Shown: positions 153 to 46,876 of the stretch, one piece after another
Layout: every line of letters starts with the position of its first letter
Position numbering within the stretch: the first letter of the stretch is position 1
Source: Clostridia bacterium
Lineage (GTDB): Bacteria > Bacillota > Clostridia > RGIG6154
DNA: 64,000 nucleotides
Assembly (NCBI GenBank): GCA_017409875.1
Contig: JAFQRW010000022.1
Coordinates: forward strand, 8,673-72,672
Reading direction: 5' to 3'
Notes under the pieces: model-generated
The model's input: the letters and a program-made list of their open reading frames with translations, nothing else
Database searches by the model: none
Told to the model about the DNA's origin: nothing
Translations under genes and position numbers: made by a program

Positions 153-1520
153 TTATTCAAACGGGTTTCCCCTCCTTGCAATAAGTAATTTTTTGCCCTC
201 TTCATCTGCGTTTTCATAATCTTCCCAATAATCATCTGTCCACTTCACCGCCTTTTTCTTAACGGGACTTTCAGCAGGACTTATGTACTGTAAACAGAAA
301 TACCTTAGTGCATCAGGAAGATGCGTTATTTCATGCGGTTCCGTCATACAGTCCGTAGGTCTCTTTTCGTCCCTCTGAAGTGCAGGCAAACACTCTATAA
401 GCCCTGTGCAGTTTGAAAATATCTTCAGCCTGCTCTCGCCGTTTTTTACTGTTAAAAGTTCTTTAATTGCAACCCAGCCAGCTTCTCGGTTTCTGCTGCC
501 CTTTAATAAACCAAGACCGTTTTCCCTAAAAATGTCAGCCTTCGCCTTTGCAGTTTCTTGGCTTCTTGCCCACAAATCATCAGGAGCAACGGTATATATA
601 ACCTCTTCACCTTTTGGTGTAAGCTTTAATATATCTTCACTTCCAACGCTTATAACCTTGTCGCTTTCAGCATACTCTCTGTAAACGTAATAATCGCCAC
701 GCTCATCAATAGCAATCCAAAGGCACGCTAAGCAGTCGAGACCATAGTCAATCGTCCGATACTTCTTCCAATGTTTTGGAATTTCAAAAGGCTCTATAAC
801 GTGAATATTTCTGTCAAATTCAGAAAAATATTGCCCTGCCATCATATCCCAGTTGCCATCACGCCACGCCTGTCTTAGTCCTTCCGATAAGTTGTTAAGC
901 ATATTCACATATCCAGGGTCATTTTCAAGCAACGCCTTGTTATCAAACACAGTTGCCGGTATAAATTCATAATCATCCGGATTTTCCGAGCCTCTGTATT
1001 TACGGCTTATAAAAAGCCTTTTTACCCATTCATGTCCGACTCCGCCGGGATTGCAGGTCAAATACATTCTTTTAGGAAATTTGTTAGCACCACGAAGACA
1101 TGCAGTCAGAGTTTCAAACTGATATTCCGTAAACTGCGTAGCCTCATCCATAAAAATAACATCATATTCTTGTCCTTGATACTGAAGCACATCCGCTTCT
1201 GATGCACAATATCCAAGCTCTAAAATACTGCCATTAGGGAAAAGGAAAAGCTTTTCCTGTCTTCTGTAATTTGCTATCCCTTTAAGCAACGGCTCTAACA
1301 TTCTTACATGGTTACGTTCCAAATCTTTATAAGTTCTTCTCAAAAGCAATATTTTAATTCCCTGATAGAAAAGTGCCAACAAGGGAGCCTTTCTGTCAAT
1401 AGCCCAGCTCTTTCCGCCACCACGCGCTCCACCATAAGCAACAAACCTTTTCCTTGCTTTAAAAAATACCGCCTGTTTAGAGTTCATGGTGCTTATGTCA
1501 AGAACTGCCTCACCCTGCAT
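153..1520 (-). CDS. Phage terminase large subunit
   Basis: 455 aa; Walker A GGARGGGKSW; nuclease-domain acidic residues; typical terminase-L architecture. Confidence 0.85.
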   Translation of the reverse strand: MQGEAVLDISTMNSKQAVFFKARKRFVAYGGARGGGKSWAIDRKAPLLALFYQGIKILLLRRTYKDLERNHVRMLEPLLKGIANYRRQEKLFLFPNGSILELGYCASEADVLQYQGQEYDVIFMDEATQFTEYQFETLTACLRGANKFPKRMYLTCNPGGVGHEWVKRLFISRKYRGSENPDDYEFIPATVFDNKALLENDPGYVNMLNNLSEGLRQAWRDGNWDMMAGQYFSEFDRNIHVIEPFEIPKHWKKYRTIDYGLDCLACLWIAIDERGDYYVYREYAESDKVISVGSEDILKLTPKGEEVIYTVAPDDLWARSQETAKAKADIFRENGLGLLKGSRNREAGWVAIKELLTVKNGESRLKIFSNCTGLIECLPALQRDEKRPTDCMTEPHEITHLPDALRYFCLQYISPAESPVKKKAVKWTDDYWEDYENADEEGKKLLIARRGNPFE

Positions 1521-3146: not shown

Positions 3147-3432
3147 TGTCTTTTACCTCGCTTTCAAGCCATTGTTTTATGCAATTAATGCACTTGTTGT
3201 TTTCTAAATCGCAATTATGCTCGGGGTTTGTAGCCGTACAGATTTTATCTAAAACACCACCCGAGCAGTCAAACTTGTCCATCATCTCTGCCATTTCATC
3301 AATGCTCATATTCCTTATTCGTTCATAGTTTGTAAGTGGAGCATCTGTTTGCTCAGGACATTTAACAGTGCTTACACAAATACCATTTTCATAAAATCCA
3401 CACTCAACTTTTGCTTTGCTCTTACATTTCAT
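3136..3432 (-). CDS. Cys-rich hypothetical phage protein
   Basis: 98 aa, 10 Cys. Confidence 0.4.
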   Translation of the reverse strand: MKCKSKAKVECGFYENGICVSTVKCPEQTDAPLTNYERIRNMSIDEMAEMMDKFDCSGGVLDKICTATNPEHNCDLENNKCINCIKQWLESEVKDNEQ

Positions 3433-3724
3433 CCTCGCTTACCTCTCTTTCTTTTGGTGTGCGGGTGTTCCATTTATCAATCATTTCTTGAAGTATAGAT
3501 TGCATTTCACCAAAGCCAATAATATTCCCACAACCAAGTTGTGCATCTACAAAATACAAAATCATTTCGGCAGGACACTCATCACAATAAATTCTAAAAT
3601 TTTTTTCTTCATACGATATTTCTGCACCTATACTTTTACTTCCACAAAACGGACATTCACGAAATTCAGCCATTATGTATCTCTCCTTGTTCCACTTCCT
3701 CAAAGGTAGCTTTTTGAATACCAA
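3422..3724 (-). CDS. Lar-family restriction-alleviation-like protein
   Basis: 100 aa; CPFCGSKS...YCDECPAEM zinc-ribbon, characteristic of Lar-type proteins. Confidence 0.45.
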   Translation of the reverse strand: MVFKKLPLRKWNKERYIMAEFRECPFCGSKSIGAEISYEEKNFRIYCDECPAEMILYFVDAQLGCGNIIGFGEMQSILQEMIDKWNTRTPKEREVSEDEM

Positions 3725-7722: not shown

Positions 7723-8364
7723 TTAATGTTTTACTCTCCATATCCTGCACAAATCATCATCAAGCTTAATGCCGAACACGTGATATTTTTCTGCAAAGCT
7801 TTTTTGACCTATATCGTGTGATTCTCTATGAAGAGTCCAGTAAAGAGGTAATACCCTCATACCTTTGTGAATAATATCTTTTCTGTTTCTGCCCATACCC
7901 ACCGCATCAACATGATGCAGCTCTGCTTTCTTTCCCGTAATGCAGCACTTTTTGTGCTTTAAACACATATATATGTATCTTGCAATATCAGGACTTCTTT
8001 CCAAGAGCTTATCAGATGTGGGAATATCATGTTCAAGACAGAAATCAATTAAAAACTCTAAAAACTCTCTTGCAGTAGTCATATCTACATCAGATAGCGA
8101 AAAATACTCTGTCCCTGTTCTTGCTATAAACTCATATTTCATAATAGCTTTAATCTCATCGGGAACATGACCTGTCCAAAGCGATATATCTTTAAATGTT
8201 GCATATATCTTTTTCCTTTGGTCAGCCGATATGCCTCGGCCGTCATTAAGTCTTATTTCGCAGTCTGTAATGCCTTGCTTCTGCAAAAGATATGAATTTG
8301 TAAATGGTGCAACAATGGTAAGTGTTTCACCATCATATTTTTGTAAATACCCCTCAATCGTCAT
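7723..8364 (-). CDS. Phage protein with C-terminal HNH-like motif (CC...HH...N)
   Basis: 213 aa; KKCCITGKKAELHHVDAVGMGRNRKD; sits between the replisome organiser and SSB. Confidence 0.45.
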   Translation of the reverse strand: MTIEGYLQKYDGETLTIVAPFTNSYLLQKQGITDCEIRLNDGRGISADQRKKIYATFKDISLWTGHVPDEIKAIMKYEFIARTGTEYFSLSDVDMTTAREFLEFLIDFCLEHDIPTSDKLLERSPDIARYIYMCLKHKKCCITGKKAELHHVDAVGMGRNRKDIIHKGMRVLPLYWTLHRESHDIGQKSFAEKYHVFGIKLDDDLCRIWRVKH

Positions 8365-8859: not shown

Positions 8860-9909
8860 TTAATTCTCTCCTTCTGCTTTTGCACTTTGCAAAATATCAT
8901 TTATTCTTCTGTCCATATCCTTGCCAAGCCTATAACAGTTTCCTTGTGATATATGATTTTTCCAAGCATTATACGAAGTATAAAACTTTTCTGCAGGAAG
9001 TTTCCCTTCGACTACAAGCTTTGCCATCTTTATATATTTCTTTTGTTTATTTCGCTTGTTTTGGTTTTTAAGTCTCCTTATCACTTTTCCGCTTCCGGTT
9101 AAATAAAAATGAAAACCCAAGTAGCTTATACCATTTTTCAGCGGAGATATTTGCGTTTTACCATTTAAAGTTAAATCCAGTGTCTTTAAAAACTCTGTTA
9201 TTACCCCAAGGCAATATTTTAAATACTCCTTACTCTGATGAATAAGCCAGAAATCGTCCATAAACCTTCCGTAATACTCAATCCCAAGCTCACCCTTTAT
9301 AAGCTTGTCCATGCCGTCTAAATAAAGAAGTGCAAAACCCTGGTTGATTTGATTTCCCAAAGGTATTCCTGCTCCTTCAGTACTGTCAATAAACAAATTG
9401 CAAAGATTACAAATATCCTCATCATAGGAAAAGTAATAATTGACAATATCCTTTAACTGTTCGTGAGAAATACTGTAGAAAAACTTGGTTACATCACATT
9501 TTAAAATATATCCGTTAATGCCGTGCTTTTGGTAAAACGCCTGCATCTGTTCTGATAACCTATCCCGACCAAAGGACGTACCCTTTCCAATCTGTCCGGC
9601 ACAGTTATCATATATAAACACATCTTTCAGTTTTGGTAAAATCACATTATCACATAAGCTGTGTTGCACAACCTTATCTTTAAAAGAGGTTGTTTTAATG
9701 ATGCGTTCTTTAGGCTCATATACTTTAAATTCGGTGTATTCAGACACCTTATATGTTTTGTTTTTCAACTGCTCTACAAGAGTATTAACACCATCTAAAG
9801 CCATGATGTTAAACTTTGCCGAGCTTTTCTTAAAGCCTTTACCGCACTTTGACCTTCTGTAAGCCTTATACATATTCCCAAAATCTGTTACTTTTTCAAA
9901 GTCGGTCAT
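8860..9909 (-). CDS. DGR reverse transcriptase
   Basis: RT motif B' GIPLGNQINQGFALLYL (a LGxxxNQ variant of the DGR IGxxxSQ signature); motif C YGRFMDDFWLI; start set at MTDFEK, which has an AAGGAG RBS; adjacent to TR, Avd and VR. Confidence 0.85.
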   Translation of the reverse strand: MTDFEKVTDFGNMYKAYRRSKCGKGFKKSSAKFNIMALDGVNTLVEQLKNKTYKVSEYTEFKVYEPKERIIKTTSFKDKVVQHSLCDNVILPKLKDVFIYDNCAGQIGKGTSFGRDRLSEQMQAFYQKHGINGYILKCDVTKFFYSISHEQLKDIVNYYFSYDEDICNLCNLFIDSTEGAGIPLGNQINQGFALLYLDGMDKLIKGELGIEYYGRFMDDFWLIHQSKEYLKYCLGVITEFLKTLDLTLNGKTQISPLKNGISYLGFHFYLTGSGKVIRRLKNQNKRNKQKKYIKMAKLVVEGKLPAEKFYTSYNAWKNHISQGNCYRLGKDMDRRINDILQSAKAEGEN

Positions 9910-10016
9910 ACAACACAGCTCCTTTTTGTTTATCCATACGGAAAGGTTGTGCATTCTTTTGGTGTGGTGTTCTGATTTCGGCTTATTGCCTACTCTGTCT
10001 GACTATCCACCAGTAC

Positions 10017-10081
10017 GGGCGAACGCCGTTATTGTTGTTGTAGTTATTGTTATTGTTGATATTACCCGAGGGCGAAACGCA
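10017..10081 (-). repeat. DGR template repeat (TR)
   Basis: 65 bp matching VR1 and VR2. The 36-nt core in coding orientation reads AAT ATC AAC AAT AAC AAT AAC TAC AAC AAC AAT AAC. All 21 TR/VR mismatches fall on TR adenines. Confidence 0.85.
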
Positions 10082-10110
10082 AAGAAAAATACAACGCACA
10101 ACCTATAAAT

Positions 10111-10479
10111 TTATTTTTTCTCTTTTGTTCTCCATGCAATAGACATATACTTCACATCAGAGACCATTTTTGACCAATACTCTGCAGACTTTGCATTAAG
10201 AATACCAAGCTCCATCGAAAGCTCAATGTATGTAAGAAGTTCATCACATAAGGTTATTGCTTTGGTTATTGTTTCACAACGCAGTTTCTTATCTGTTATA
10301 TTGCTTATTCTGTTTGCTTCCATAAGATTTTCGTATATATCCATACTTTTAAGCTGCAGCCTGTCCACAAGAGAATGTCTGTACTTTTTAGGATACCTGT
10401 TCGGATTGCTTGTAAGAACATATGTATGTTTCATAAGCTCCTTGGCTTTTATAACAACCTTCAAATCAGTATCACTCAT
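10111..10479 (-). CDS. avd: Avd-like accessory variability determinant (four-helix-bundle / IVS family)
   Basis: 122 aa, basic and helical; YPKKYRHSLVDRLQ...IYENLMEAN pattern of the IVS/Avd family; lies between the target and TR as in BPP-1. Confidence 0.65.
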   Translation of the reverse strand: MSDTDLKVVIKAKELMKHTYVLTSNPNRYPKKYRHSLVDRLQLKSMDIYENLMEANRISNITDKKLRCETITKAITLCDELLTYIELSMELGILNAKSAEYWSKMVSDVKYMSIAWRTKEKK

Positions 10480-10484
10480 AATTT

Positions 10485-11042
10485 TTACTCCTCAGAAGAT
10501 ACAAAGATATCAGATACAAAGACCAAAACCGGGCGAACGCCGCAATAGTAGTCGTAGTAATCGTAATTGCTGATATCACCCGAGGGCGAAACGCAAACGC
10601 ACCAGCGGTCATTTACATGTTCTGGAGTACTATCAGCTGTAGCGAGCCACCACCATGTATCAATCTTGTGTTTATCAAATATTTCTACATTATCCCTGTA
10701 AAAATCAAATGTAGGGATGCTTATCTTGCTTGTCATACTTCCATATGTCTTAAGTCCGTCAAGGCTTGTAAGGTCTGTCGCAAATTCAAGCACATTTTCC
10801 GCGCCTATTGCATCCTCAATTTTAGGTAATATTTCTTCTGTAAGTCTTTTTAAAATTTCACTTTGAGAAAAGTTGTTGTTTTTGCCGTATGTAGAACCAA
10901 AAACACATTCTTTAGCAACAACCACAGTTCCCTCTTCAGTTTCCTTTACCTTAATAAACTCAACTCCTGCAACGGGAAAAGTTTCACCAATTTTAACTTC
11001 TGATAATTTCATTTTTATTTCCTCCTGATTATTTAGATACAA
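10485..11042 (-). CDS. DGR target protein 1 (C-terminal VR, C-type-lectin-like ...WWWL...CGVRP tail)
   Basis: 185 aa; VR1 is in-frame 15 codons before the stop (CVSPSGDISNYDYYDYYCGVRP). Confidence 0.8.
   Translation of the reverse strand: MYLNNQEEIKMKLSEVKIGETFPVAGVEFIKVKETEEGTVVVAKECVFGSTYGKNNNFSQSEILKRLTEEILPKIEDAIGAENVLEFATDLTSLDGLKTYGSMTSKISIPTFDFYRDNVEIFDKHKIDTWWWLATADSTPEHVNDRWCVCVSPSGDISNYDYYDYYCGVRPVLVFVSDIFVSSEE
10531..10595 (-). repeat. DGR variable repeat VR1
   Basis: 65 bp; differs from TR at 10 positions, all at TR adenines. Confidence 0.85.
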
Positions 11043-11640
11043 AGATATTAGATTTTAAGATACAAAACGGGCGAACGCCGATATCGTCGTAGTAGCAATT
11101 GCCATCGTCGAAATTACCCGAGGGCGAAACGCACTTAACCCAATCGTCATCATCGTGAGTAGGTGTACTGTATGCAGTAGAAAGCCACCACCACTTGTCA
11201 AGTTTTTGCTTGTCAATAGCCTCAACCCATTTGCGATAGTCATTTGCAGTAATTAAAGACATCTTTCTTTTAATTGTTCCGTAGTCTTTTAAACCATCAT
11301 CAGATGTAAGGTCAACTTCATGTTCCATAATGTTGTCTTTGCCGACTATTTCTTCAATCTCTTCACCGAACGCACAGCACAGCTCGTCCACATGCGAACC
11401 GTCATAATTGTTGTTTGAACCAAACTTCTCCGAATCATTCAACAAGCCTTTAAGCAGTACGGCTGTTGCATCTTCCAAATGCTCCAACACAAAAAATTCA
11501 TACTGGCCCAGCTTAAATGTTTCTCCCGGCGCAATGTCAGATAGTTTAATTCCCGCTTCCGCGCCAAACGCCGCTTCGATTGCCTTGACCTGTTCTGCAG
11601 TCAATTCAATCCTTTGATTGTTAATACTTAAATAGTTCAT
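11029..11640 (-). CDS. DGR target protein 2 (paralogue of target 1, with C-terminal VR)
   Basis: 203 aa; VR2 encodes CVSPSGNFDDGNCYYDDIGVRP; overlaps target 1 by 14 nt. Confidence 0.8.
   Translation of the reverse strand: MNYLSINNQRIELTAEQVKAIEAAFGAEAGIKLSDIAPGETFKLGQYEFFVLEHLEDATAVLLKGLLNDSEKFGSNNNYDGSHVDELCCAFGEEIEEIVGKDNIMEHEVDLTSDDGLKDYGTIKRKMSLITANDYRKWVEAIDKQKLDKWWWLSTAYSTPTHDDDDWVKCVSPSGNFDDGNCYYDDIGVRPFCILKSNIFVSK
11070..11134 (-). repeat. DGR variable repeat VR2
   Basis: 65 bp; differs from TR at 11 positions, all at TR adenines. Confidence 0.85.
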
Positions 11641-11691: not shown

Positions 11692-11904
11692 CTAATTATG
11701 CAAATTGGAGTCTACGCTATGCGTAGCATCCTGCTCGTCTTCTTCCACAAGACGGGCTTTTTTCTTTTCTTTGATATTGTCGGCCATAAGTACAATCGCA
11801 AGCACAGTCGCAGCCGATACACAAACACTTGTTATAACACAACAAAACCAAAGCCTAAATACCATCTCTGTAAAATCCAAATCAATCACTCCTTCCTCAC
11901 GCAA
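11692..11904 (-). CDS. Small single-TM hypothetical protein
   Basis: 70 aa with one hydrophobic helix. A plus-strand ORF on the same DNA looks like antisense noise. Confidence 0.3.
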   Translation of the reverse strand: MREEGVIDLDFTEMVFRLWFCCVITSVCVSAATVLAIVLMADNIKEKKKARLVEEDEQDATHSVDSNLHN

Positions 11905-12678: not shown

Positions 12679-12918
12679 TCACCTCGTCTTTCTTCTGCTG
12701 TTCTTCTTCATTTTTTCAAGCCACTCTTCAAAATCCTCAAGAGCAACAATAAACCTCGGTTTTAAATTGTCGTTTAAATCATCTAAGGTAAAGGATGGGA
12801 AATCCTTATAGTGCATAATCTTATGCGCCGTATAATATGTACACCCCAAATAATCCTTCACATCATTAACCGTCAAAAATCTCTTTTCTGTAACACTTAT
12901 GCCTTGCATATTCTTCAC
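12679..12918 (-). CDS. Excisionase-like HTH DNA-binding protein
   Basis: 79 aa; LTVNDVKDYLGCTYYTAHKIM, an HTH_17/Xis-like motif. Confidence 0.5.
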   Translation of the reverse strand: MKNMQGISVTEKRFLTVNDVKDYLGCTYYTAHKIMHYKDFPSFTLDDLNDNLKPRFIVALEDFEEWLEKMKKNSRRKTR

Positions 12919-13112
12919 CCCCTTATCTCATTTCCCAATAACTCATCAATAGTACAATTAAATAATGCCGATAGGGCAATAAGTGTATCAGCTCTCGGTT
13001 TTGCCTTACCTGATTCCCACTTTGCTACAGTGCTTCTGTCTATACCAATTTCTTTGGCCACATCTTCCTGTAGTAATTCTCTTGATTTTCTGATTTCTGC
13101 TATTCTTAACAT
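12915..13112 (-). CDS. Cro-like XRE-family regulator
   Basis: 65 aa HTH_3 (LLQEDVAKEIGIDRSTVAKWESG); divergent from the CI-like gene. Confidence 0.7.
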   Translation of the reverse strand: MLRIAEIRKSRELLQEDVAKEIGIDRSTVAKWESGKAKPRADTLIALSALFNCTIDELLGNEIRG

Positions 13113-13270
13113 TTACTCACCTCTCTTCAAAGTGAAGTTTCGTCACTTCTGGTTTTATTATAAGTGATTTTTTCGCACTTGTCAATAGTTTTTTAAAAAA
13201 TAAGTGAAATTTTGTCACACCATATTGAAATGTGATTGTTTTTCACTTATAATTATGTTGAGGTGAAAAT
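13113..13270. promoter_or_regulatory. Lysogeny switch region with four GTGA-N6-8-TCAC operator-like inverted repeats
   Basis: AGTGAAGTTTCGTCACT, AAGTGATTTTTTCGCACTT, AGTGAAATTTTGTCACA and TGTGATTGTTTTTCACT, all between the divergent XRE genes. Confidence 0.5.
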
Positions 13271-14068
13271 ATGAAACTTTTAAAAAATCTGAGAATTTAT
13301 AAAGATATGTTACAAAAAGATGTTGCGGATTATTTGGGGGTCGACAGAACAACTTATGTCAAATATGAAACTGGAGTAAGCGAACCAAGCTTTGAGATGT
13401 TGTTAAAACTTAGAGAACTATTTGGTGTTTCCATAGATTATATGCTTTTGTGTACAAATGTGTGGGAACCAGATATATATGAGGACTATAAAAATGCAAA
13501 AACCAACTATACGAAAATGATGTTAATTTATAGAAATGGACTGCCATGCAATTATCCAGAGGTTGCATTTTTTTACGATAATCAAAACAAGTTTGCATTT
13601 AGCACCGATGCTCATAAAGACGTTGATGCACCATTAGCCTTTGCAATAAGGACCTTATCAGAAGACCAGAAAGCACACCTCTATTCGTACATTTCCTCAA
13701 TGAATGGTGTAGCACTTACTAACACGCCGCTTACAGATGCTGAAATGAATATTATTTCAACTTATCGTACACGTCCAGAAATGCAGCCGGCAATAAACAC
13801 ATTGTTGGGAGTAAACAATACACAAACTCCAAAAACCAATGAAGCAATCACACCATTTATTGGTGATGATATGCGTTATACTGGAAAAGAAGAAACCTCT
13901 ATAAACATTGATAACCTTATAGCAAATGAAAAATATACCAAAGAAGACAAAAAGGATATTATCGACTTTAATGATAAGGTTAGAACAGTTGATTCTGATG
14001 ATGAATTTAAAGCCGTTGCATACGGCGATGGTGACATATCTGACGACGATACTGTAAAACACACATAA
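13271..14068 (+). CDS. CI-like phage repressor (XRE N-terminal HTH plus C-terminal domain)
   Basis: 265 aa; HTH_3 at the N-terminus; faces the integrase end. Confidence 0.65.
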   Translation: MKLLKNLRIYKDMLQKDVADYLGVDRTTYVKYETGVSEPSFEMLLKLRELFGVSIDYMLLCTNVWEPDIYEDYKNAKTNYTKMMLIYRNGLPCNYPEVAFFYDNQNKFAFSTDAHKDVDAPLAFAIRTLSEDQKAHLYSYISSMNGVALTNTPLTDAEMNIISTYRTRPEMQPAINTLLGVNNTQTPKTNEAITPFIGDDMRYTGKEETSINIDNLIANEKYTKEDKKDIIDFNDKVRTVDSDDEFKAVAYGDGDISDDDTVKHT

Positions 14069-15409: not shown

Positions 15410-16543
15410 ATGCCAAAAGAAAGATTAAAGGGCGAAGGAACAGTCAGAAAGCGTTCCGATGGGCGCTGGATGGCTGAAATAATGATTAACAAAAAACGCA
15501 AATCCTTTTATTCCACAAAATCTGCTCAGGATGCACTACGCAAAATGAAACTATATTTAAGAAATCTTGAAGATTGCGTCCCGCCACCGGAAAAATATTT
15601 TGGAGAATATATAGAAAATTGGTACAAACTAAAAAAAGAGCCTAATTTAAAAATCATTTCGGCTCAAACACTAAAAGGTATTATTGACAACCATATTGTT
15701 CCTCGTATCGGCCATTATAAGCTCAACGAACTAACCTCTGAAATTATTGAACGTGAGCTTTTAAACCCTTTAAAGAAAACCCACTCTTATTCCAGGGTAA
15801 AAAAAGTATATGACTATACTAACGCATGTTTAAAATATGCGGTTGCAGAACGCCACATCATTTATAATCCAATGCTCACAGTTGAAAAGCCTAAAACAGC
15901 AAACTTTAAATTTAAAGAAATCGAGATTTTAAGTGATGATGAAATAGGAAAATTTATGGCCGCGCTGGATGCAACATATTCTACCGGAAGACCGATGGTG
16001 AGAAATGCGTATGCGTTTGCCGTTATATTGTATTCGGGCTTAAGAGAAGGAGAACTCTTTGCCCTTCGTTGGAAAGATTATGACAAAAACAAAAAAACAA
16101 TGCTCATAGACGGAAATCTGGTATGTGCCAAAGACGAATCAGGCAAATATAAAATGATTGAGCAATCCTCAACAAAAACAGTGGCAGGGCAAAGAAAAAG
16201 TCCTTTAGGCAAAAAGTGTATCGAAGCATTAGAAAAAATAAGAGAAATGTCAGAACACACTTCCCCTGATGATTTTATCGTTTGTACAAAAGACGGAAAG
16301 CCAATGCGACCAAGAAGTTTCCAAAAATCGCTTGATGCCCTTTCAAAAATCGCCGGCATAAAACACTTAACCCCACATATGCTGCGACACACTTTTGCCT
16401 CCATGTTAATCCAAAAAGGTGTGGATATAAAAGTAGTATCAGAACTTCTCGGCCACGCCTCAGTCAAAATAACTTATGATACATATGTTCACATAATTAA
16501 AGAGCAAAAAATAGAAGCTCTTAATAAATTGGATGAACTTTGA
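15410..16543 (+). CDS. int: Tyrosine-type phage integrase
   Basis: 377 aa; C-terminal catalytic HMLRHTFAS...LGHASVKITYDTYVH. Confidence 0.9.
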   Translation: MPKERLKGEGTVRKRSDGRWMAEIMINKKRKSFYSTKSAQDALRKMKLYLRNLEDCVPPPEKYFGEYIENWYKLKKEPNLKIISAQTLKGIIDNHIVPRIGHYKLNELTSEIIERELLNPLKKTHSYSRVKKVYDYTNACLKYAVAERHIIYNPMLTVEKPKTANFKFKEIEILSDDEIGKFMAALDATYSTGRPMVRNAYAFAVILYSGLREGELFALRWKDYDKNKKTMLIDGNLVCAKDESGKYKMIEQSSTKTVAGQRKSPLGKKCIEALEKIREMSEHTSPDDFIVCTKDGKPMRPRSFQKSLDALSKIAGIKHLTPHMLRHTFASMLIQKGVDIKVVSELLGHASVKITYDTYVHIIKEQKIEALNKLDEL

Positions 16544-33057: not shown

Positions 33058-33131
33058 TGGAGCGGAAGACGAGATTCGAACTCGCGACGTTCACCTTGGC
33101 AAGGTGACGCTCTACCACTGAGCCACTCCCG
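33058..33131 (-). tRNA. tRNA-Gly (GCC)
   Basis: GCGGGAGTGGCTCAGTGGTAGAGCGTCACCTTGCCAAGGTGAACGTCGCGAGTTCGAATCTCGTCTTCCGCTCCA. Confidence 0.85.
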
Positions 33132-33220
33132 CATGTTGTCTTGAACAAGAAATATAATACCATATTTTTAAGTATTTGTAAAGGGTTTTTTGAAAAAAAA
33201 CACAATTTTTTCATTTTTAA

Positions 33221-45213: not shown

Positions 45214-46383
45214 CTATTTCAAAAGCTGTGCTCTATCGGTCTTTTCCCAAGCAACATCAAGGTCAATTCTTCCCATATGACCATAAGCTGCAAGTTTTTT
45301 ATAAATAGGCTTTCTTAAATCAAGCTGCTTAATAATTGCCGCAGGGCGCATATCAAACACTTTTTTCACTCTCTGAACAATTTCTTCCTCAGAAATTTTG
45401 CCTGTTCCAAAGGTATCTACCATTACAGACACAGGATTTGCAACGCCTATTGCATACGCAAGCTGAACCTCACATTTATCAGCAAGTCCTGCAGCTACAA
45501 TGTTTTTTGCAATATATCTTGCATAATATGCACCGCTTCTGTCAACCTTTGTTGGGTCTTTTCCTGAAAAAGCACCGCCACCGTGACGTGAATATCCGCC
45601 GTATGTATCAACAATGATTTTTCTTCCTGTAAGACCTGTGTCGCCCTGAGGGCCTCCAATAACAAATCTTCCTGTCGGATTTATGAAGAACTTTGTATTT
45701 TCATCTAAAAGATTTTCAGGAATTGTAGTTTCAACAACCTCTTTTTTGATATCTGTATAGATTGTTTCGAGTGAAACATCAGGGTCATGCTGTGTTGATA
45801 CAACAACAGTATCAACTCTTACAGGCTTGTCTCCTTCATATTCAACAGTAACCTGTGTTTTACCGTCCGGGCGAAGATATTTCAGCACTCCGTCTTTTCT
45901 TACTTTGGTAAGTTTTTTAGCCATTTCGTGAGAAAGAACAATAGGAAGCGGCATAAGCTCTTTTGTTTCATTGCAAGCATATCCGAACATCATTCCCTGA
46001 TCACCTGCACCCACTTCTGCCTCAGCCTGACTGTCACCGTCTTTTGCTTCTTTTGCTTTATCTACACCAAGTGCGATATCAGCAGACTGCTTGTCCACAG
46101 CAACCATAACTCCGCAAGAAGAAGCATCAAATCCCATATCAGATGATGTGTATCCGATTTCTTTTACAGCTTCTCTTGCTACTTTTGCGTAATCAACAAC
46201 AGCGTTTGTTGATATTTCACCCATTATAACTATCATACCAGTTGTTGTAAATGTTTCACAAGCAACTCTTGCAGTTGGGTCTTTTTCATAAATTGCATCC
46301 AAAACAGAATCAGAAATAATGTCACAAACCTTATCAGGATGTCCTTCTGTTACAGATTCTGAAGTAAAAAGTCTTTTTTCCAT
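45214..46383 (-). CDS. metK: S-adenosylmethionine synthetase
   Basis: GHPDK; GGGAFSGKD. Confidence 0.9.
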
Positions 46384-46411
46384 ATTATAAACTCCTCTCA
46401 AACAGGAAACT

Positions 46412-46876
46412 TTAAATCAAATGATAACTTAAAAAAGTAACAACAATGCCCGCTACTGCAACTCCAAGAGTTATCCATGGGATTGAATATTTCATTCTCA
46501 TTCCAAGGATTGCAGCAATCATTGCACCTGTCCACGCACCAGTTCCTGGGGCGGGAATTGCCACAAACACAAAAAGCGCAATGCCTGAGTATTTAAGCAC
46601 TGTTTCAGCTTTTTTCATTGTTCTTCTTTCCATCCAGTCAATAAACTTAACAAAAAGCTTACTTCGTCTTATGAAACCAAAAACAGGCTTCATATAGGCA
46701 ATTATAAACGGCACAGGAAAAATGTTTCCTGCCACACACAATACGTATGCAAGTTGCCATGGAATATCATAGGCTATAGCAACAGGAATTGCACCTCTTA
46801 ATTCTATAACAGGTACCATTGAAATGCCAAATACAACTAACAACTCCTGCCAAAATTCCATTAAATAGTTTATCAT
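46412..46876 (-). CDS. Small multidrug-export-family membrane protein
   Basis: 154 aa, 4 TM. Confidence 0.5.

Follow-up and report, generated by a model that had tools for sequence, protein, structure and literature searches.

A predicted diversity-generating retroelement with two small paralogous DUF6273 targets in the early region of a Clostridia prophage

Which function could a pair of small, soluble-looking and hypervariable proteins serve in a prophage, when their genes lie next to the lysogeny switch and the replication genes? This question is raised by a stretch of 64,000 nucleotides from a Clostridia bacterium (GenBank assembly GCA_017409875.1, contig JAFQRW010000022.1), hereafter called the window, in whose coordinates positions are given unless another record is named and which holds only the early half of the prophage. 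As judged from its sequence, the locus is a complete and canonical diversity-generating retroelement (DGR), consisting of an Avd accessory protein, a 68-nt template repeat and a reverse transcriptase (RT), and we regard it as nearly certain that this retroelement has two DUF6273 proteins as its targets. Overall, it is moderately probable that the retroelement diversifies these paired proteins for an accessory binding role. The cassette is compact (2.8 kb) and comprises the following features:

11029..11640, minus strand: target 1, an open reading frame (ORF) of 203 amino acids with an AAGGAG ribosome-binding site, identical to NCBI MBQ2898008.1
11068..11133, minus strand: VR1, the variable repeat of target 1 (codons 170-191)
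10485..11012, minus strand: target 2, 175 amino acids from the ATG at 11012, NCBI MBQ2898007.1
10530..10597, minus strand: VR2, the variable repeat of target 2 (codons 139-161)
10111..10479, minus strand: Avd accessory protein of 122 amino acids, recognised by profile matches
10016..10083, minus strand: non-coding template repeat of 68 nt, between Avd and RT
8860..9954, minus strand: reverse transcriptase, an ORF of 364 amino acids (349 amino acids from position 9909, where gene callers start it)

The template and the 3' ends of both target genes form a three-copy repeat, whose conserved ends occur exactly three times in the 64 kb, against 0.00-0.03 occurrences expected by chance. Within the 66-nt core, VR1 differs from the template at 11 positions and VR2 at 10, and each of these 21 mismatches falls on a template adenine (11/11, 10/10 and, pooled, 21/21). 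Both variable repeats are placed at the 3' ends of the target ORFs and have an invariant 3' end in common with the template. The invariant ends GCGTTTCGCCCTCGGGT and GGCGTTCGCCCG are present in VR1; GGCGTTCGCCCG is the G+C-rich 3' end, which is identical in all three copies and directly after which the homology stops. Translated in the frame of the targets, the template reads LCVSPSGNINNNNNYNNNNGVRP. It contains 22 adenines, and its ten AAY codons together with ATC and TAC give 12 codons that can be re-randomised, from which a theoretical repertoire of about 9.2e12 protein variants per target was computed. The RT matched Pfam RVT_1 with an E-value of 4e-12, and its motifs LGNQINQ and FMDD are readable in the sequence. 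The closest RTs among deposited phages are those of nd12 (49% identity), nd4, FP_Brigit and Lelie, and Bordetella phages were matched as well. For Avd, the best NCBIfam match was DivGenRetAVD (E 6e-10; 39 bits, which is below the curated cutoff of 80), and in Pfam it matched 23S_rRNA_IVP (E 4.5e-6) and bAvd (E 1.7e-3). In such an element, an RNA of the template would be copied with adenine-specific errors and the copy would then replace both variable repeats, so that each round would re-randomise 12 codons at the C-terminal loops of both targets.

Is this arrangement peculiar to one prophage? Scanning one genome per species yielded 80 related loci, all of them in metagenome-assembled genomes of gut Clostridia (Oscillospiraceae, Acutalibacteraceae, Faecousia, Congzhengia and others). 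The order target 1-target 2-Avd-RT is kept in about 65 of the 80 loci. With regard to the co-occurrence of homologues with DGRs that the original prediction had proposed to look for, Avd and RT are both present in 61 of the 80 loci, and 52 of these 61 carry a variable repeat in both targets. Across the 61 loci, template adenines account for 1224 of 1292 mismatches, and the orthologous cassettes in 52 species are all differently diversified. The templates of the related loci are 61-85 nt long and all encode a CVSPxG-(N/Y)n-GVRP pattern; in the proteins, residues 176-187 reach an entropy of about 3 bits, while the flanking CVSPxG and GVRP are invariant. A two-gene layout with lengths of 200-206 and 170-185 amino acids recurs in 62 loci, and in most of these 11-15 nt separate the stop codon of target 1 from the ATG of target 2. 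The wider family is large, with 3733 matches in a word-indexed search and 1390 clusters at 50% identity in an exhaustive search (E <=1e-3), the nearest 150 of which are mostly 170-270 amino acids long.

The two targets are clear paralogues, as had been noticed initially from the motifs that they have in common: they are 43% identical over 173 residues (E 2e-45), and each ends in a copy of the template. Outside the variable region, target 1 orthologues are 56% and target 2 orthologues 54% identical among themselves, compared with 39% between the two groups and 40% between the two targets of the same locus. Because identity within the groups exceeds that between them, the duplication is old and both copies have been maintained. 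New here are the conservation of the cassette in more than 50 Oscillospirales species genomes, its constant early position, its link to P22/SU10-like portals, the age and separate conservation of the two paralogues with fused forms elsewhere, and the identity of both variable regions among separate assemblies of this prophage. The chance that the targets also work as a pair is about even. Pairing is suggested by the tight intergenic spacing and by two-domain fusions: the distant relatives P0184, P0199, P0203 and P0262 (355-411 amino acids) are single ORFs that comprise two consecutive small DUF6273 domains, both of which close with a variable-region-like ...G(V/I)RP motif of their own, and they resemble natural fusions of a pair such as target 1 and target 2. 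As partners from an ancient duplication, the two targets would then act jointly, probably in a heterodimer whose two faces are variable.

In a few relatives, L061 (3162), L098 (7433-7497) and L096/L099 (the same IMG/VR contig), a target 2-type gene with a variable repeat is found 6-7 kb away from the cassette. Adjacency of the targets is therefore not required.

What kind of proteins are the targets? Their small size and soluble appearance were confirmed. Neither contains a hydrophobic segment (the maximal Kyte-Doolittle values in a 19-residue window are 1.14 and 1.18), and no signal peptide, transmembrane segment or attachment domain was found in target 1 or target 2. The pI of each is about 4.5. 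Target 2 had been described as a protein of 185 amino acids overlapping target 1 by 14 nt, an artefact that arises when the TTG at 11042 is taken as the start. The ATG at 11012 is preceded, 9 nt upstream, by an AGGAGG (11027-11022), and this start gives a protein of 175 amino acids and a gap of 16 nt after target 1, in keeping with the short gaps of most related loci. The same length was obtained in two independent gene calls (the collection's caller and NCBI MBQ2898007.1). Thus, target 2 most likely starts at ATG 11012, and TTG 11042 is an unlikely start.

Each target is predicted, from sequence profiles and a structural model, to be essentially one DUF6273 (C-type-lectin-like) domain, to which target 1 adds an N-terminal extension of 30 residues; the 12 variable codons sit in the C-terminal loop of each. 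A family of unknown function, phrog_9958, matched residues 31-202 of target 1 (E 9e-37) and residues 2-175 of target 2 (E 7e-37). The N-terminal domains that had been left unassigned are thus the N-terminal half of the same DUF6273 domain. Against Pfam DUF6273 (PF19789), the targets scored 22.5 bits (target 1) and 22.7 bits (target 2) with a gathering cutoff of 23.5, and the C-terminal half alone was aligned. Among 41 close homologues, 39 matched DUF6273 with E below 0.01, and many carry a precomputed PF19789 match. With regard to the C-type-lectin/FGE-like scaffold that the original prediction had proposed, DUF6273 is published as C-type-lectin-like; no match of either target to the FGE-sulfatase family PF03781 was found at E up to 1. 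A family profile search of PDB sequences returned one spurious match only. Neither target matched an Ig or FN3 domain, and the tentaclin architecture is therefore absent. A weak match of both to phrog_10993, a Hoc-like head-decoration family, was confined to the variable region.

Structure prediction, which had been suggested as a check, was informative for target 1. Its AlphaFold2 model (pLDDT 80.9, pTM 0.77) has low confidence only around the variable region and consists of an N-terminal beta-hairpin and helix (residues 1-26) followed by one alpha/beta domain. A Foldseek search of this model against the PDB gave a sole significant match, 9qa6, the IgA peptidase of Thomasclavelia ramosa (E 7.8e-4), whose N-terminal domain is termed DUF6273 (PMC12402451). 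Searched against BFVD, the model had 11 matches with E <1e-3 (best 1.1e-8; query-normalised template-modelling (TM) score about 0.6), of which five are named DUF6273 proteins of gut phages and six are unnamed or otherwise labelled. The matched proteins range from 163 to 1436 amino acids, with alignments of about 220 columns. The model of target 2 was poor (pLDDT 64.8) and was not used for a fold search because of its low quality; the fold of target 2 is instead inferred from its homology to target 1.

Where is the cassette located with respect to the phage life cycle? The features of the prophage that define its setting are:

13157..13185, minus strand: consensus early promoter upstream of cro, 12/12 match to TTGACA-17-TATAAT
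13225-13253, plus strand: sigma-70 promoter on the repressor side, 11/12 consensus match
13271-14068, plus strand: repressor of the lysogeny switch
12915-13112, minus strand: cro of the lysogeny switch
15410-16543: integrase, which together with an ImmA-like protease marks the prophage end
153-1520, minus strand: large terminase, in the same operon as the cassette

The back-to-back, near-perfect promoters between the cro-like and repressor genes are a textbook divergent lysogeny switch. A few small ORFs lie between cro and target 1, and the genes that follow RT in the operon encode SSB and an HNHc_6/phrog_398 protein, then a replication initiator and a methyltransferase, and finally an HNH endonuclease and the large terminase. 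The annotation thus agrees with the earlier placement of the targets between the Cro/repressor/integrase module and the SSB/replication genes. We found no minus-strand promoter between the consensus early promoter and the cassette, and no minus-strand terminator-like site between the early promoter and position 8300. The operon with the cassette is thus probably transcribed from the early promoter at 13157..13185. Since the cassette sits in a repressed early operon, diversification would take place mainly during lytic replication and not in the lysogen.

This position is conserved. Among the related loci, 50 have 5 kb or more of sequence on each side, and in all of these (50/50) the cassette was found in a same-direction block between lysogeny genes and terminase; 39 of 39 downstream marker-gene matches were on the cassette strand. 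The replication genes are downstream of the cassette in 19 loci and upstream in 14. The statement that the targets lie outside any tail module holds for the visible part of the prophage; the structural module is located off the window, beyond coordinate 1, and was retrieved in part. Contig L083, which is 100% identical, runs 8.7 kb past window coordinate 1 (L083 11316-20191) and encodes a P22-type portal, a capsid protein, an SU10-type adaptor and a virion protein of 922 amino acids. Another contig (L085 10478-12233) supplies the first 585 residues of a tail fibre of 1030 amino acids. The prophage is therefore classified, on sequence grounds, as temperate and podovirus-like, in an Oscillospirales-like Clostridia bacterium. 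A near-identity DNA search of the prophage against deposited phages gave no match.

Portals of the P22/SU10 type were found in 9 of 10 related loci with a terminase (the 9 whose portal could be typed). The cassette thus marks a broad group of podovirus-like temperate phages. Hopping of the cassette between unrelated phage types was considered and rejected, given these 9/10 portals in loci whose terminases are only 31-84% identical.

A large structural target of the same retroelement was not seen. No third variable repeat was found in the 8.7 kb beyond the window or in the first 585 residues of the fibre, nor within 10 kb on either side of 60 related loci, nor in contigs from IMG/VR, save for the translocated target 2-type genes. 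In a homologue search for the 1030-residue tail fibre, the best match was 50% identical and the exact protein was not returned; none of 49 tail-fibre homologues contains a GVRP, WWW or VSPxG motif.

How does this cassette compare with known systems? DUF6273 was described as the lectin-like variable domain of "tentaclins", in which it is combined with Ig-like domains (PMC10743442). The fusion partners reported for it include the Ig-like domains of Hoc-like tentaclins, a tail-fibre N-terminal domain and a cell-wall-anchored IgA protease (PMC10743442, PMC11792537, PMC12402451). Small DUF6273-only second targets of 234 and 294 amino acids are known from nd4 and nd12 (Baykov et al. 2023, PMC10743442), the Faecalibacterium phages Lelie and CP11 have DUF6273 in their large as well as their small targets (PMC11792537), and DUF6273 targets were also described for Toutatisvirus (bioRxiv 2024.10.15.618418). 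Hence, the novelty implied in the original prediction was overstated: small lectin-like DUF6273 retroelement targets in gut Firmicutes phages are a known kind, and two-target cassettes are common. Like the targets studied here, the small targets of nd4, nd12, Lelie and CP11 have a single DUF6273 domain with a C-terminal variable region, lack a signal peptide and are encoded in the early or replication region, and an identity of 28-32% to the window targets is detectable. In these phages, however, the small target is a second, remote one and the RT lies beside a large Ig-domain tentaclin or structural target, whereas in the window the whole retroelement lies beside two small tandem paralogues and no large target was seen. 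Their small targets are also longer (234-294 amino acids, compared with 175 and 203 here), and the closest RT is 49% identical. Thus, distinctive here are the two small tandem paralogues as targets, the whole retroelement in the early operon, and the short template.

Published gut-phage DUF6273 homologues are 28-36% identical to target 1. One of them, gp06 of FP_Brigit (NC_047909, L106 3948-4559), is a target 1 homologue of 203 amino acids that is annotated as hypothetical. It directly follows Cro-like regulators, and the RT of this phage is located 41 kb away at 45729-46745. Gp24 of FP_Toutatis lies among methyltransferase and replication genes, target 2 of nd4 upstream of SSB and DnaC, and the small target of Lelie 9 kb downstream of its switch; in these four phages, the RT is 10-40 kb away from the small target.

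The Bordetella phage BPP-1 (mtd-avd-TR-brt) has the same order of target, avd, template and RT, adenine-specific mutagenesis, an AAY-rich template, a C-terminal variable region in a lectin-type fold and an invariant 3' repeat end. Its template comprises 134 nt, compared with 68 nt here. Mtd is a trimeric tail-fibre tip protein of 381 amino acids with beta-prism and beta-sandwich attachment domains and a location among tail genes, whereas the window encodes two single-domain proteins of 175-203 amino acids in an early operon, with no hairpin after the variable region. The targets also differ from an Mtd-like receptor-binding protein in that no extra domain was found beyond the 30 residues of target 1 and the genes belong to the early operon. 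In the survey of Wu et al. (2018), about 15% of retroelements carry several targets per cassette, and about half of the category "d" targets and many lectin-type targets are short single-domain proteins (PMC5758913). The DUF1566-only targets in that catalogue, which includes two-target cassettes, are likewise short and single-domain. They belong to DUF1566 instead of DUF6273, with a weak structural link between both (BFVD E 0.036), and the catalogue does not describe a specific and conserved pair of different paralogues (PMC5758913). The N-terminal DUF6273 domain of 9qa6 resembles the target 1 model with a query-normalised TM-score of 0.55 at a sequence identity of 14%; it is a domain of 292 residues in a secreted, cell-wall-anchored protease of Thomasclavelia ramosa and is not diversified.

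What, then, could the variable proteins bind? The targets would most likely be accessory receptor-binding or adhesion proteins that are associated with the virion or released at lysis, and neither route would require a signal peptide. The virion proteins of phages assemble in the cytoplasm and are not known to carry signal peptides. Therefore, the absence of a signal peptide, which had been noted initially, is no argument against surface binding. Drawing on analogy, we give a virion or extracellular binding role of both targets slightly less than an even chance. A variable ligand-binding pair at the phage-host interface is what published papers assume, and it is our leading reading here, likewise with slightly less than an even chance.

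Several observations weigh against such a role or against parts of the explanation as a whole. In this prophage and in every related phage examined, the target genes belong to the early block and not to the structural genes, which is atypical for receptor-binding proteins. A virion location of either target is backed by analogy, and no evidence for it was found at this locus. Neither target has a recognisable attachment domain such as the Mtd beta-prism, and the N-terminal extension of target 1 matched no other protein of the prophage. Furthermore, both targets stay just below the DUF6273 gathering cutoff, and in the model of target 2, whose alignment is dominated by target 1 sequences, the C-terminal 50 residues have a pLDDT below 50. 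No inverted repeat of at least 6 bp that would form a hairpin or cruciform was found within about 75 nt downstream of VR1 or VR2; this structure is present in BPP-1 but is not universal in DGRs. Finally, no variation of the variable regions was seen among the sampled copies of this prophage.

Potentially, the targets might instead be early-expressed, cytoplasmic, hypervariable binders outside the virion, which might neutralise variable host defence or receptor components or exclude superinfecting phages, and the retroelement would then let the phage re-tune recognition. The early block beside the lysogeny switch and replication genes, here and in 50/50 related loci, points in this direction, as do the small DUF6273-only homologues of FP_Brigit, FP_Toutatis, nd4 and Lelie, which are also early with an RT 10-40 kb away. 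The lack of a signal peptide, transmembrane segment and attachment domain in both targets, and the presence of a separate tail fibre of 1030 amino acids, are consistent with it as well. However, gene position alone is weak evidence, neither target matched any PADLOC defence model, and the cassette tracks one virion type (9/10 P22/SU10-like portals), which a virion partner would fit equally well. In addition, the locations assigned to DUF6273 so far are all extracellular or on the virion surface (PMC10743442, PMC12402451). We therefore consider cytoplasmic binders rather unlikely. A more specific form, to which we give a somewhat smaller chance still, is that the targets are not virion proteins and form an early cytoplasmic heterodimer with two independently randomised faces that acts inside the infected cell. 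Such a heterodimer might neutralise variable components of host defence or of envelope precursors, or exclude competing phages. It is hinted at by the early-block position, which is consistent in every lineage examined and independent of the location of RT, and, if true, it would be a retroelement-driven recognition system of a phage inside the cell.

A different objection concerns the activity of the element, since the variable regions may have been diversified in the past by a retroelement that is now inactive in this prophage. VR1 and VR2 are base-for-base identical in L083 and L107-L111, despite single-nucleotide polymorphisms at 8039 and 8387 among these copies, and the exact target 1 and target 2 proteins occur on 10 contigs. 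This comparison covers consensus assemblies of lysogens from at least 4-5 independent samples, several of which have a project-style prefix in common or adjacent run numbers and may carry one strain. The identity of the repeats fits repression in the lysogen, a single circulating strain or inactivity alike. Repression accounts for the stability equally well, none of RT, Avd and the two target ORFs is disrupted, the template retains its full AAY set, the variable repeats keep perfect 5' and 3' homology, and the orthologous cassettes of 52 species have all diverged in their own way. A frozen relic is thus quite improbable.

Finally, the view that the targets are pieces of one longer gene for a tail fibre or tentaclin, broken up by a frameshift or a wrongly called boundary, could draw on the weak phrog_10993 match over the variable region and on the multi-domain DUF6273 proteins of other phages, but it is hardly credible and is refuted by the conserved gene boundaries, as each ORF has its own ribosome-binding site and ATG and is a complete domain, the two-gene layout is the same in 62 loci (200-206 and 170-185 amino acids), and the nearest 150 of the 1390 homologue clusters are mostly of 170-270 amino acids, in agreement with the original prediction.

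With this locus, many unnamed genes of gut prophages, which form about 1400 clusters at 50% identity, can be assigned to a known system. Their hosts are Oscillospiraceae, Acutalibacteraceae, Faecousia and related bacteria of the human and livestock gut. The locus also offers a compact model cassette of 2.8 kb with a template of 68 nt, which would be missed by pipelines that demand repeats of at least 90 nt, such as that of PMC11792537. The early position and the pairing of small DUF6273 targets bear on their assumed receptor-binding role.

Some neighbouring genes and other parts of the window are described for completeness. Target 1 is preceded, at a distance of 51 nt, by a small ORF whose product is predicted to span the membrane once (11692-11865, minus strand; 57 amino acids from ATG, 62-65 according to gene callers). 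The gene directly upstream of target 1 is not conserved among related loci, and a conserved small membrane protein ahead of target 1 was rejected, as a comparable ORF was found in only about 16 of 72 related loci. The phrog_398/Pfam HNHc_6 protein of 213 amino acids (7723-8364, minus strand), whose gene separates those of SSB and the replication initiator, shows a conservation of 94-97% in the closest relatives (L001, L088). An ORF of 83 amino acids in the late-early region (3422-3673, minus strand) weakly matches Lar_restr_allev (restriction alleviation) according to the annotation precomputed for L083. No tRNA was found at the integrase-proximal end of the prophage. From 16600 to 64000, the window is ordinary bacterial chromosome with genes for hydroxyethylthiazole kinase, Rho, pyruvate:ferredoxin oxidoreductase, MnmG, EF-G and an ABC-F protein, and this chromosomal part also holds a tRNA-Gly (33058-33132).

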